A stretch of DNA of 64,000 nt from Callorhinchus milii (GCF_018977255.1 NW_024704742.1:8496001-8560000), one strand, 5' to 3'; counted from the first letter of the stretch, positions 24,041 to 30,169 are shown. Translations and numbers: made by a program. The notes: generated by a model from the letters alone, not told the origin.

Positions 24041-24809
24041 CTAAAGAAAATTTAAATCGTTTTCTACAGGTTTATAAAACTCTCCACATGATTGTATCTC
24101 AGCCTCCATCATATCAGCCACTTTTCGTATCTGTTGAGCAATTTCTGACTTGGCTCTGCTGGAATAGCAAAGGATATTCTTTATTGCAAAGTAGACATCA
24201 TACACAACAATGATTGCTGAGAGAAGCTGCAAAATAGCCCTCACTGGGTTTACCCTGCGGGTGGCCTCCATGTTGATAATGGGGGGAAAACTACCTAAGC
24301 TCCTGGAGAAAATCTCAGCTTTACCAGTAGTTGTGTCTCTTACTGATTTCATGAACAATTGGATTATCCTGTTTAGTTTATTGTAGCAATCCGCCATGGC
24401 TCTGCTGTCTGTTTTATATTGTTCTATTATTCCATTCACTCTTCTCACTTTCTCTGTTTGTGAAGCAGTGATATTGCCACGAGCTACAGAGATAAGATCA
24501 CCCGCAAGAGCAACCATTAAAATTCCCGCAAGCACAAACCCGAGTGTGAACCCCAATCTTCTCATCATTACATCACCTAATATTATGACAGTGATTATTC
24601 CCGCAATAATCAGTATCACTCCGGCAGGACGCAGTATGGAGCCCACAATGGTCAGAGCTGTGTCTGATCTGTGAGGGTTGTCGATGTGGTCCGCAGCCTC
24701 TCGCAGTGCTCCCAGGTGTCCTCTCACCTGTTCCCTCCAGTCAGGGAGCTGTGCTTTAAAGCTCTGCACATCATCAGTCCTCTTTGCCAGCTCAGTGAGG
24801 AAGGCTTTC
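24041..24809 (-). CDS. APOL: APOL-like domain B exon (terminal exon), duplicated locus copy 1
   Basis: Acceptor tttgtgttcacAG (24811-24810), phase 2. KAFLTELAKRTDDVQSFKAQLPDW..LREAADHID aligns with the start of the gene 1 exon. Hydrophobic hairpin, C-terminal LSAIIVVYDVY..SEIAQQIRKVA, TAG stop. Confidence 0.88.
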
Positions 24810-25109
24810 CTGTGAACACAAATGCAAACAACTCTCAGCTACTGCCCACATCACACACAGCACCAGACACAGGGAGCCCAGTGGGGTCAGGGCAGCCTTT
24901 CCCACAGAGGAAAGTCGTTACAGATTTCTGAAGAGAAAGATCATGTGTTCTCAAGAGGGCTGAGGGCAGCTCTGTCTCTCTCTCTCTCTTTGTCCCCCTT
25001 CAATCAGTGGCCTTTGACACTTTATTTGTCTAGAAGCTCAAAGGAAACGAGGGAAGTTAAAAAGAGTTGATCACATAGTTGTTTTTTTATTCAATCTCAG
25101 TCTCTAGAC

Positions 25110-25340
25110 TTTATTAATATGTTATATTATAATATTAATGTTATTTATTGTTATTGATTGTCATAATTCAGTTGATAATTTATAAATAACATTTATAATA
25201 TTTGTAAATAAACAATCTGATAAACAATCTGTAAATATGTAAATAAATATTTATAAATTAAAGAATTAGAATTTATAAATATAATTAATATTGTAAATTA
25301 TTATAATATAATTTATATTATTTTATGTAATTTTATATAA
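25110..25340. repeat. AT-rich low-complexity tract (paralog at about 53640-53890)
   Basis: Almost entirely A/T. Confidence 0.85.
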
Positions 25341-25706
25341 TTATCTGACATTAAACATCTGCCGCCTCTCAGTCCAGTTCCCCAATCTAACCATCTTCCG
25401 TTTCTGTCCACGTGTCCTGTTATCAGTAACCACTCAATCCAGGTTTAAACCCCAATTATAGACTACTATGAAGTAATCATCAGTGACCCTAACACTGAGC
25501 CCTGAGCCTCTGCCTTGTGACATCTGATTGTGCTCCGTGAACCACTGCCCTTTATTTCCTCTGATTCAGGCAACATCTTTTCCACTCTACATGGCCCTCT
25601 ATCCTGCAGAGCGGGAGAGAGAAAGTAAAAAGTAGCCATTCAGACAGAGCCAAACGAGAACGATATCAGGCAGTTTTATCAGCAGTTGTCTTACATCTGT
25701 ACGTAC

Positions 25707-25731
25707 CTGACCTCAATGTTGCTGACTGTGT
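25707..25731 (-). CDS. APOL: 25-nt microexon B, copy 1 (DTVSNIEVR)
   Basis: ttctttcttgtttaacAG|acacagtcagcaacattgaggtcag|GTacgt. In frame with the exon starting at 24809. Confidence 0.8.
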
Positions 25732-27662: not shown

Positions 27663-28288
27663 CTTCCAGATGTTTATAAACCTCTTCATACGCCATCACT
27701 TCATTCTCCATCACTTCAGCCACATCGTTAATCTGTTTCGCAATATCTGCCCTGGTTCCACGGTTGAGATTATGACCATCGTTTGCTCTGGAGATCAGAG
27801 ATGATATGAAAGGCAGCCTTGTCTGAGCTGCTGACCCGGCCTTGGATGTCACCGACACCTGTTTGTTCATTGTTTCAGCCACAGCAGCAAATACAGCCAA
27901 GTGTTCAGTGTCAGCTCCACCAGGAAATGTGGTTTCTGATTTCTCACCATAACGTTTCAAGATCCGAACTGCTCGTGAGAGTTTTGTGTAACACTCTGCC
28001 ATTTCTCTGCTGTCCTTTGCATATTGTTCCGTGAAATCATTAACCCTTTCCAGTCTGTATGTTTGGGTAACAATGTCCGTGTCACAAGCTGCAGTGTTGT
28101 CAGCCCCACCAGCCACACTCTGGCCAACTCCCACTCTCGTGCCACGTTTGTGAATCAAGTAAATGTCGTCTGCGATCTCTTGTAGGTCTCTGATGTAGCT
28201 GATCATCCACACTCTCCACACAGGGAACAAGATGACAAAATCCTTTACATCCTCCTTCCTCTGTTCAACCTCAGCTTTGAAAGATATC
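27663..28288 (-). CDS. APOL: APOL-like domain A exon (626 nt, hairpin-less), copy 1
   Basis: Acceptor aatatttacAG (28290-28289), phase 2. ISFKAEVEQRKEDVKDFVILFPVW..LQEIADDI..EQYAKDS..DIAKQINDVAEVMENE aligns with gene 1. Candidate donor AAG|GTACAG at 27662, phase 1. If unspliced, the frame runs on to 27295. Confidence 0.8.
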
Positions 28289-29082
28289 CTGTAAATATTA
28301 GTAACTCAATTAGACACCCAGCTCAGAGGAAGGACATTTGACCATCATGTCTGTGCTTCTCTGTGAGATTTATCAAATCAATCCCATTAACCCATGCTTT
28401 CCCCATCCACGTCTCTGCCTTAATCCTTTGATATGGTGGCACATGGGCTGGTAACTGGCAAATAACATTTAATACAAGTTTAGAGTTGTAATTTCAGGAC
28501 AGACACCTGGAAGTTTTTCTTTGCACAGAGAATAGTTAACAACTGGAATAGAAAGGAGTTTGAGGGCAGGCACTGGATTAATTTAATCCACGACTGTTTG
28601 TAGGAGAATGCTCTGTGCAATTGGCGCGTTTCATGCTCGCAATACAGTTACTACACTTTACAGTATATTCTGTGAAGCGCTTTGAGACATCTCGAAGATA
28701 TGATAAGGCACTATATCAAGTGCAAGGATTATTATTGTTATTATTAATGTGCAGAGCCGGCCAGCTCACTGTCTGCACTGCCTGGTTCCCGCGCTAAACA
28801 AGACTGACATCATCATCTCAGCATCATTCATCAGCTCAGCAGGAAGCGGTGTGATTAGACTGTTAGCCCCGGCCTTGTTATCATTCAGTGCTCAGGCTGT
28901 CCAGCACCTCAGGACTCTGCACTGTTTTATTTAAGCACGTGTTCAAAGTCAGGGTGGGGTCAGGGAGGGGAATAGAGAGAGAAATGAGATAAAGAATCAA
29001 TCAGACAGAGCCATGTGAGAATGATTGATTAATTCACAATATCCGGCAGTGTATTGAGCAGCTGGCTCACCTCTGTACGTAC

Positions 29083-29107
29083 CTGTCCTCGGTGTCACTG
29101 ACTGTGT
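29083..29107 (-). CDS. APOL: 25-nt microexon A, copy 1 (DTVSDTEDR)
   Basis: ttctcccttgttcaacAG|acacagtcagtgacaccgaggacag|GTacgt. In frame with the exon starting at 28288. Confidence 0.8.
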
Positions 29108-30147
29108 CTGTTGAACAAGGGAGAAACAGGAGCCATTATCACTGGTTATTATCTGGTACCAACAGAGTGAACAGACACAATTCTGACTGATACAGTGACC
29201 ACACAGGAGGGAATGTCCTCACCACTCACGGGTAAACAAAGCGATCTCCCCTCGGCAGCGACAGGAGCAGAGCAGCAATGTGGCGGCTTCACTGCTGACA
29301 AGGTTTGGCTTCTTTCCTGACAAACGCAGTGGGTCACACAGGAGCCGTGAGTGGGGAACACTCAATATAACAGAGACTCAGAGACACAGCAATAATAATA
29401 ATAATAATTTTAATAATCTTTGCATTTGACACAGCACCTTATCATGTTGTTAAAAGTTCTCAAAGCGCTTCACAGAACATACTGTAATGTGAATTGATTA
29501 AATAGAGCTGATACAATGGTGAGGATTTAAATAGGGTAAATAGGGAGAAATTATTCCCACGGCCTGGCAGTCAGTGACCAGAGTTCTTGGTTATAAGATA
29601 GTCACAAGAAGAATGAAACAAACGTTTTGATGAAATTATTTGACCCAGAGAGTTACTGGGGTGTGGAAAGTCAGCTAACTAAGGTGAAAGAAGCAGAGTC
29701 CATTGTGGGTTTCCAGGGAGAATTAGACAGGGATATTATGAGAGAGAGAGGGACTTGAAACTTGGGGATAAGGCAGGACAGTGAGATTGAATGAACTGCT
29801 TGCTCTGAGGGCCAGTGTAGGGCCTCCTTCTGTGCTGTAGATTCTGTGATTCAGTGAATCACAAACACACTGACTGTATATAAATGTAAGTAGTTGTTGT
29901 TCTCTCTGGGGCGGACGAACTGAAAGGAGAGTTTGAGGGTGTTGATGAAAGTCACAGTCGAAGAGATAGGACTTTAAGTGAGTGTGAAGATGGGAGAGAG
30001 GCTCAAGGTAATGGGGTTTCAGACAGTGGGGTTGTGTTTGACGGCTCAGGGCTGATTCAGAGGGATGGCAGGAGGTTGTTATCTTACTCGGTGCAGAGGA
30101 TTAAAATAAAAAGTTAATATTGTCATCAATTCCAATAGATTAATTAC

Positions 30148-30169
30148 CTGGTTTAGGAATCTCTGCCAT
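30148..30169 (-). CDS. APOL: Start-codon exon, coding part (MAEIPKP), copy 1
   Basis: acaATGGcagagattcctaaaccag|GTaatt: strong Kozak context and a phase-1 donor matching microexon A. Candidate acceptor at 30207-30206. Conserved in copy 2. Confidence 0.7.

Follow-up and report, generated by a model that had tools for sequence, protein, structure and literature searches.

Among the closest described relatives of the gene analyzed here are the vertebrate apolipoprotein L (ApoL; Pfam PF05461) proteins, comprising APOL1-6 in humans, which are characterized in the pertinent passages of several studies as membrane-interacting, channel-forming proteins of innate immunity (PMC8358165, PMC10937811, PMC7891394). 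According to a section of one of these sources, trypanolysis and toxicity both depend on the transmembrane hairpin of ApoL, whose insertion is made pH dependent by its acidic residues (PMC7891394). The subject of this study is a locus of the elephant shark, Callorhinchus milii, located on the minus strand of a 64,000-nt stretch of DNA (NW_024704742.1:8496001-8560000; hereafter the window, with all coordinates counted from its first letter), which had been read from the sequence alone as a fused gene encoding two tandem ApoL domains, A and B. Compared with vertebrate ApoLs, B spans the whole family profile, whereas A aligns outside the hairpin, and the C. milii protein carries two ApoL-derived domains in one chain, the first of them without a hairpin.

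Human APOL1 and APOL3 are two paralogs that act together, one modulating the other, as described in parts of two reports (PMC7090385, PMC10765320), which resembles what we propose for A and B. The human proteins, however, are encoded by separate genes and both possess a hairpin, whereas here the two partners are fused, one is hairpin-less, and their interaction is only proposed. In the immunoglobulin mu secreted/membrane switch, two C-termini result from competition between a stop and poly(A) signal and a nearby donor that lies inside an otherwise terminal exon; at the C. milii locus, in contrast, the downstream exons encode a whole paralogous domain, and the competition is only proposed. Paralogous components with and without a hydrophobic head also cooperate in bacterial bi- and tripartite alpha-pore-forming toxins. 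These toxins (AhlB, Nhe, MakE) are helical proteins with a hydrophobic helical head, but the likeness is an analogy for which no shared ancestry is claimed, the profile of B giving faint, non-significant matches to AhlB, NHE L1, and MakE (E 0.017-0.22).

Our literature search returned nothing on chondrichthyan ApoLs, C. milii apolipoprotein L, or tandem or two-domain ApoLs. Sections of PMC6854765 deal with ApoA/C/E only, those of 10.1101/693333 name APOL1 once, as an interferon-stimulated gene, and the elephant shark only in a reference, and those of PMC12248677 concern APOL1/APOL3 folding. The earlier impression that the architecture had not been described holds for the literature but not for the databases, where it is already contained in RefSeq/UniProt models: LOC103191485, LOC121849673, and LOC103187865 represent the same locus and its paralogs with the same junction. 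These C. milii models are named 'uncharacterized protein', and their precomputed Pfam column lists ApoL only. Among ApoL relatives scanned from other proteins, six of seven carry one ApoL region, and the representatives of the atlas clusters, among the matches listed for each query (A and B), are 240-302 aa long, which corresponds to a single domain. What is new is a tandem ApoL with a hairpin-less first domain, predicted from the sequence alone, for which gene models are already public.

Copy 1 of the gene comprises five exons, with AG before each acceptor and GT after each donor, and four GT...AG introns. Joined, the exons give a coding sequence of 1467 nt, that is, 488 codons followed by TAG, with no internal stops. 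The exons, boundaries, length, and open frame claimed by the sequence-only reading all proved to exist, and so did its second copy, whose homologous exons encode 486 aa; the five-exon fused structure is confirmed as an observation. The features are as follows (a slash marks the exon-intron border).

30169-30148, minus strand: coding part of exon 1, 22 nt, ATG at 30169, encoding MAEIPKP, donor CAG/GTAATT
29107-29083, minus strand: micro-exon A, 25 nt, encoding DTVSDTEDR, acceptor AACAG/, donor CAG/GTACGT
28288-27663, minus strand: exon A, 626 nt, ApoL-derived domain without the hydrophobic hairpin, ending at the internal donor AAG/GTACAG
25731-25707, minus strand: micro-exon B, 25 nt, encoding DTVSNIEVR, the inter-domain linker; present in the models P0019 and P0003
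24809-24041, minus strand: exon B, 769 nt, encoding a complete though divergent ApoL domain and ending in the stop TAG (24043-24041)
24661-24476, minus strand: hairpin-coding part of exon B, hydrophobic helical hairpin, residues 283-344 of the 488-aa product
27662-27295, minus strand: read-through tail, 122 codons in frame with A if the donor is unused; start of the intron between exon A and micro-exon B in the fused form
24040-23250, minus strand: probable 3' untranslated region of the fused mRNA, holding a copy-1-specific insertion (23710-24036) resembling a short interspersed nuclear element (SINE), and ATTAAA at 23273-23268
60258-52571, minus strand: copy 2 of the whole unit, exons 60258-60237, 56973-56949, 56148-55523, 54381-54357, and 53333-52571; RefSeq LOC121849673

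The argument for one fused gene rests on the junction between exon A, the micro-exon, and exon B. Sequencing data were taken from four of the 12 runs listed for the locus (X1, X2, X7, and X8), none of which is on record as RNA. A 526-nt contig of X1 (record 6; depth 19.8) matches the window with 0 mismatches over 500 placed letters, its positions 1-220 lying on 27882-27663 and its positions 247-526 on 24808-24529, so that the donor of exon A is joined to exon B; the 26 unplaced letters at the join fit in length the 25-nt micro-exon and the first base of exon B. The contig derives from copy 1, because copy 2 differs by ~3% in exon A and ~11% in exon B. The depth of X1 is zero in all five bins of 26010-27514 and in other intron bins, with the exon bins covered, and the run therefore behaves as RNA would. 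X1 contigs lie in exon A at 27663-27882 and 28119-28290 and in exon B at 24529-24808 and 24370-24556, and record 1 of the same run matches part of the probable 3' untranslated region (23396-23560, 0 mismatches).

The same junction is found in public gene models. RefSeq XP_042192701.1 (P0019; LOC103191485, 445 aa), the current model, is identical letter for letter to residues 44-488; it begins at the internal Met 44, with both 5' coding exons missing. An earlier model, XP_007910665.1 / A0A4W3H3X0 (P0003; 329 aa), equals residues 1-323 over its first 323 residues, a stretch that includes both the MAEIPKP-DTVSDTEDR start and the junction between A, the micro-exon, and B; the N-terminus encoded by exon 1 is also homologous to that of P0002. 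Searching longer proteins with exon A yielded two C. milii proteins, both reading ...YKHLE-DTVSNTE...: P0001 (443 aa, LOC121849673), which is copy 2 of the window and 100% identical to it in the B part, and P0002 (485 aa, LOC103187865), encoded at a third locus. The junction YKHLE/DTVSN is common to P0001, P0002, P0003, P0019, and P0022, and the exon-A donor is used in the models P0004 and P0005 as well. The sequence-only reading had pointed to data spanning 27663 to 25731 as its check; X1 record 6, a transcript joining A to B if the guessed run type is right, provides them, and together with XP_042192701.1, XP_007910665.1, and the models of copy 2 and the third locus it supports the fused reading. 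A 201-nt contig of X2 with 8 mismatches covers 29052-29252, that is, micro-exon A plus both intron flanks, and is probably unspliced RNA or DNA from a paralog.

Domain B is found only as part of this arrangement. Within the window, a probe made of exon 1 matched only itself and copy 2, with no match between 27663 and 25731; a first exon unrelated to this probe may nevertheless exist for B. Micro-exon B is without an ATG, and B has its first Met only within the hairpin. No stand-alone B protein was found by a search with B among proteins of 140-447 aa, which returned two proteins, both containing A. Because no start exon of its own was found and the searches give only A-containing proteins, B is known only behind A. 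We conclude that the locus is very probably one gene (RefSeq LOC103191485) rather than two, with the fused A-B protein as its main product and with the origin, isoforms, and function proposed below.

Exon B matches the Pfam ApoL profile with 34.8 bits (cut-off 25.9; E 1.6e-8), and the match extends from position 45 to position 295 of the 298-position profile. Aligned with ten canonical ApoLs, B is collinear throughout, including the hairpin, the DVY hydrophobic helix, and the C-terminal amphipathic helix, and its hairpin bears a 7-residue loop insert relative to theirs. Hydropathy in 19-residue windows peaks at 2.75 and 2.29, both within the hairpin (residues 283-344), and at 2.09 in the second hydrophobic helix, LLSAIIVVYDVYFAIKNIL, which is of the WD[IV]YS ('membrane-addressing') type; this helix and the amphipathic helix, AKSEIAQQIRKVADMMEAE, both align with those of relatives. 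Since it combines the profile match, a helix-loop-helix hairpin, and the second hydrophobic and amphipathic helices, domain B is, judged by its sequence, a complete but divergent ApoL domain.

Domain A differs in this respect. Exon A scores 25.0 bits against Pfam ApoL, just below the cut-off, and its relationship to the family is seen in other comparisons: A matches B by blastp (E 7e-18, 27% identity), phmmer matches of A to canonical ApoLs range from E 3.4e-13 (P0007) to 1e-4, including P0009 at 8.5e-10, which itself scores 140 bits to ApoL, and in an atlas search with A, ApoL was the family set of all matches, with three clusters among the matches listed. The identity of both A and B to ApoL relatives is 22-30%. 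In the alignment, a clean 35-residue deletion removes the first hairpin helix and the turn from A, a polar stretch, TRLPFISSLISRANDGHN, stands in place of its WD[IV]YS helix, and the C-terminal helix is retained. The hydropathy maximum of A is 1.27 in 19-residue windows, and neither a hydrophobic segment nor the hairpin was found. Domain A is, on these comparisons, an ApoL-derived, hairpin-deleted domain and not a full ApoL domain. Its earlier label, 'APOL A', was right as to descent and wrong as to completeness, and only one of the two Pfam ApoL matches expected of the spliced protein, that of B, reached the cut-off; the full-length third-locus paralog P0002 scores 56.4 bits in two stretches. 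With the hairpin and the hydrophobic helix lost, A should be soluble and unable to insert into membranes alone.

All A-type and B-type matches above 35% identity come from C. milii. With the whole third paralog as query, six proteins were recovered, every one from C. milii, and an exhaustive HMMER search with A returned 16, of which four are C. milii A-type proteins at 79-87% identity and the other 12 are at most 35% identical. The gene family therefore appears lineage-restricted, and the A-B pair is so far confined to C. milii in the databases searched. A maximum-likelihood tree of 18 rows shows the A domains (four rows) as monophyletic with support of 100/100 and the B domains (three rows) with 100/99. 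A and B are sisters with moderate support (83/91), and their grouping may be due to long-branch attraction because of the long stems. The A part groups copies 1 and 2 (83/71) and the B part groups copy 1 with the third locus (93/89), both with weak support; this discordance and the uneven identity along the unit, described below, suggest mosaic gene conversion in the cluster. The cluster comprises at least five A-type units. Two A-type loci elsewhere on the same chromosome, P0004 (LOC121849696) and P0005 (LOC121849683), have irregular public models: in P0004, the A donor leads straight to a B-like exon without the micro-exon, with the frame shifted, and then to another A, and in P0005, A is followed by a micro-exon and then by unrelated sequence.

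Several points weigh against the fused reading. The RNA nature of run X1 is guessed, and the 26 letters at the join of record 6 are known by length alone. Exon 1 and micro-exon A have no read cover in X1, X2, X7, or X8, so the first 43 residues are model-based only. The exon-A donor, which the sequence-only reading had rightly called only moderately consensus, is poorer than the CAG/GTACGT donors of the micro-exons and departs from the usual consensus at +4 to +6. Matching phases are weak evidence for the junction, because 12 of the 30 GT dinucleotides within 27720-27293 are in the required phase 1 and a compatible donor is almost always available by chance; we rejected phase matching as support on this ground. 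The Pfam score of B is low compared with the 78-140 bits of canonical relatives. Between copies 1 and 2, the divergence of both domains is close to the neutral rate, so that constraint is unproven for at least one of the copies, and any role of A is a proposal.

One alternative explanation is that the locus consists of two units with mostly separate outputs, in which A with its tail and its own poly(A) signal is the normal product, and in which the A-B mRNA, a conjoined or read-through form, arises as a minor by-product that annotation pipelines favor for having the longest open frame. The weak donor is in line with it, and so is the region behind exon A, where, as had been noticed from the sequence, no stop stands at the end of ApoL homology. 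The frame runs on for 122 codons to a TAA at 27297-27295, whose last base starts AATAAA at 27295-27290; only 0.18% of 5000 shuffles leave this frame open, and there are eight and six stops in the other two frames. P0006, a UniProt/Ensembl model from the third locus, uses the homologous tail. The tails of copy 1 and of this locus share 91.8% identity (112/122), compared with 78.3% (162/207) for domain A (Fisher p 0.0013); a coding and constrained tail, strong diversifying selection on A, or recent homogenisation between loci are possible explanations. Runs X7 and X8 reach a depth of 9-46 over 26913-27514, with a 186-nt contig on 27296-27481 (5 mismatches). The tail matches no Pfam family and no PDB relative at E up to 5. 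The earlier claim that it differs between the copies is true of its later part only: the first 80 codons differ at just 5 of 240 nt, and the tails diverge thereafter because copy 2 lacks 27043-27416.

If outputs were mostly separate, however, B would apparently be left without a start codon or first exon, and yet it forms a 255-codon open frame at three loci; a B-only protein is absent from the searches described above, and the joint form is abundant enough in X1 to assemble at a depth of 19.8. A-only and A-B isoforms can, moreover, coexist. We consider separate outputs quite unlikely as an account of the locus, and favor a fused gene whose A-only isoform probably coexists with the fused form: an A-only mRNA is plausible, and a B-only form is without support in the probe and protein searches.

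The other alternative is that the A-B units, although expressed, are duplicates undergoing decay in an ApoL cluster with fast turnover, their frames open by chance and their products without a selected function. As duplicates, copies 1 and 2 are collinear, and their identity is 95-97% in the region of A and 86-91% in that of B. By the Nei-Gojobori method, copies 1 and 2 differ in A by 15 non-synonymous and three synonymous changes (ratio 1.44) and in B by 67 and 11 (ratio 1.86; excess binomial p 0.041), 24 and four of which fall in the hairpin part of B. Exon B is ~89.7% identical between the copies, compared with 90.6% for its intron, and of 5000 trials with 78 random substitutions each, 8.1% left a B-like frame open. 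Since the ratios are at least 1, exon B diverges about as fast as its intron, and frame survival is at this level, constraint between copies 1 and 2 is not demonstrated. With the third locus as reference, B of copy 2 shows 26 unique residue changes compared with 11 in copy 1, several of them charged hairpin residues; charged residues are present in the hairpin of the third locus as well. The low Pfam scores and the scrambled models P0004 and P0005 also agree with decay.

Against decay, the three loci keep 485-488 open codons despite 22-28% residue divergence, with indels in frame, and neither window copy has lost any of the four splice-site pairs. Recurrent positive selection would likewise give ratios above 1. 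Such selection is known for primate APOL genes. The hairpin core of copy 1 is uncharged, and charged hairpin residues occur also in working APOL1, according to a passage of PMC7891394; as acidic hairpin residues occur in ApoL (PMC7891394, same section), the charged hairpins of copy 2 and the third locus need not mean decay. Taken with this evidence, we regard decay as improbable and retain the reading of a fused A-B gene.

The product of the fused gene would be a cytosolic protein, its N-terminus being without signal-peptide-like hydrophobicity, composed of two ApoL-derived helical domains in which a 9-residue acidic linker, encoded by the 25-nt micro-exon, connects the presumably soluble A to B. 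The latter retains the hairpin together with the third hydrophobic helix found in pore-forming ApoLs. We propose that an ApoL unit consisting of a start exon, a 25-nt micro-exon, and one large terminal exon was duplicated in tandem, that the downstream unit came to be without a start exon, and that a phase-1 donor at the end of ApoL homology in the upstream terminal exon became joined to the downstream micro-exon, after which at least three loci would have received copies of the whole A-B unit. Competition may occur between the weak donor at 27663 and read-through to the stop and poly(A) signal ~370 nt further on, so that the gene would give either the A-B protein or A by itself, extended by a cysteine-rich tail of 122 residues. 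By analogy with the family, B may act on membranes in innate defence or membrane dynamics, and A may serve as a regulator, partner, or decoy for B in cis.

A bolder version of this proposal, which we put forward only as a doubtful possibility, is that the A-B gene is a self-contained two-component ApoL system in which A is a safety catch, sensor, or decoy, isoform choice sets the ratio of the products, and free A acts in trans. A may hold B inactive until a change in pH, a pathogen factor, or cleavage in the acidic linker intervenes; the donor at 27663, set against the stop and poly(A) signal 370 nt downstream, may determine the ratio of armed A-B to free soluble A; and free A with its conserved cysteine-rich tail could be an inhibitor or co-factor in trans. 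AlphaFold2 models of the full RefSeq product (17-row alignment; mean predicted local distance difference test score, pLDDT, 46.4; predicted template modelling score, pTM, 0.34) and of domain B alone (12-row alignment; mean pLDDT 49.1, pTM 0.42) were all-helical and too uncertain to use, and a prediction of A in complex with B scored 0.00, a value that speaks neither for nor against contact between them.

A module consisting of the 25-nt micro-exon, ~45 nt upstream, and ~80 nt downstream of it occurs five times in the window, as seen by sequence comparison.

28993-29197, minus strand: micro-exon module
25617-25821, minus strand: micro-exon module
56859-57063, minus strand: micro-exon module
54267-54471, minus strand: micro-exon module
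4657-4861, plus strand: micro-exon module

The modules are 80-86% identical between the A, B, and plus-strand units, and the large exons of those units are only 25-32% identical as protein and undetectable by blastn. Gene conversion or a splicing constraint are possible reasons for this conservation. In all three modules folded, the acceptor and the start of the micro-exon are predicted to form pairs with an intronic block, GCTCTGTCTGA, that is invariant. A conserved RNA helix around the micro-exon was considered and rejected, since z-scores of 0.17-0.44 are at shuffle level and four of 37 pairs show double changes.

The plus-strand unit belongs to a third ApoL gene in the window, with its 25-nt micro-exon at 4747-4771 (+) and its large exon at 8645-10150 (+). 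This exon encodes a canonical ApoL (113 bits) and is broken up at 9417-9935 by 43 tandem copies of a 12-nt repeat (87% matches). The array codes for ~170 residues of (AAGEAAGKAASK)n, which separate the hairpin part from the C-terminal WDIYS helix. The SINE-like element at 23710-24036 lies directly after the exon B stop of copy 1 and is lacking in copy 2; it has many relatives elsewhere in the window, and its extremely high depth in X1, X2, X7, and X8 is expected of a high-copy expressed repeat. Three retroelement fragments with reverse-transcriptase (RVT_1) homology were also found, the last of them inside intron 1 of copy 2, an intron that is ~2.2 kb longer than that of copy 1.

11736-12239, plus strand: RVT_1 fragment
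39270-39806, plus strand: RVT_1 fragment
58946-59554, minus strand: RVT_1 fragment

As the gene is already annotated, the finding is of specialist rather than broad interest. The locus illustrates a way in which a two-domain gene can arise by capture of a tandem duplicate, through an internal donor in a former terminal exon. How ApoLs stay harmless to their own cell and how APOL1 and APOL3 influence each other are open questions, which carry medical weight because of APOL1 kidney disease. A hairpin-less ApoL domain tied to a complete one offers a ready-made test case, in which the membrane activity of A, B, and A-B can be compared. If the two-component proposal were true, the C. milii protein would be the first natural ApoL regulated in cis by a paralogous ApoL domain.

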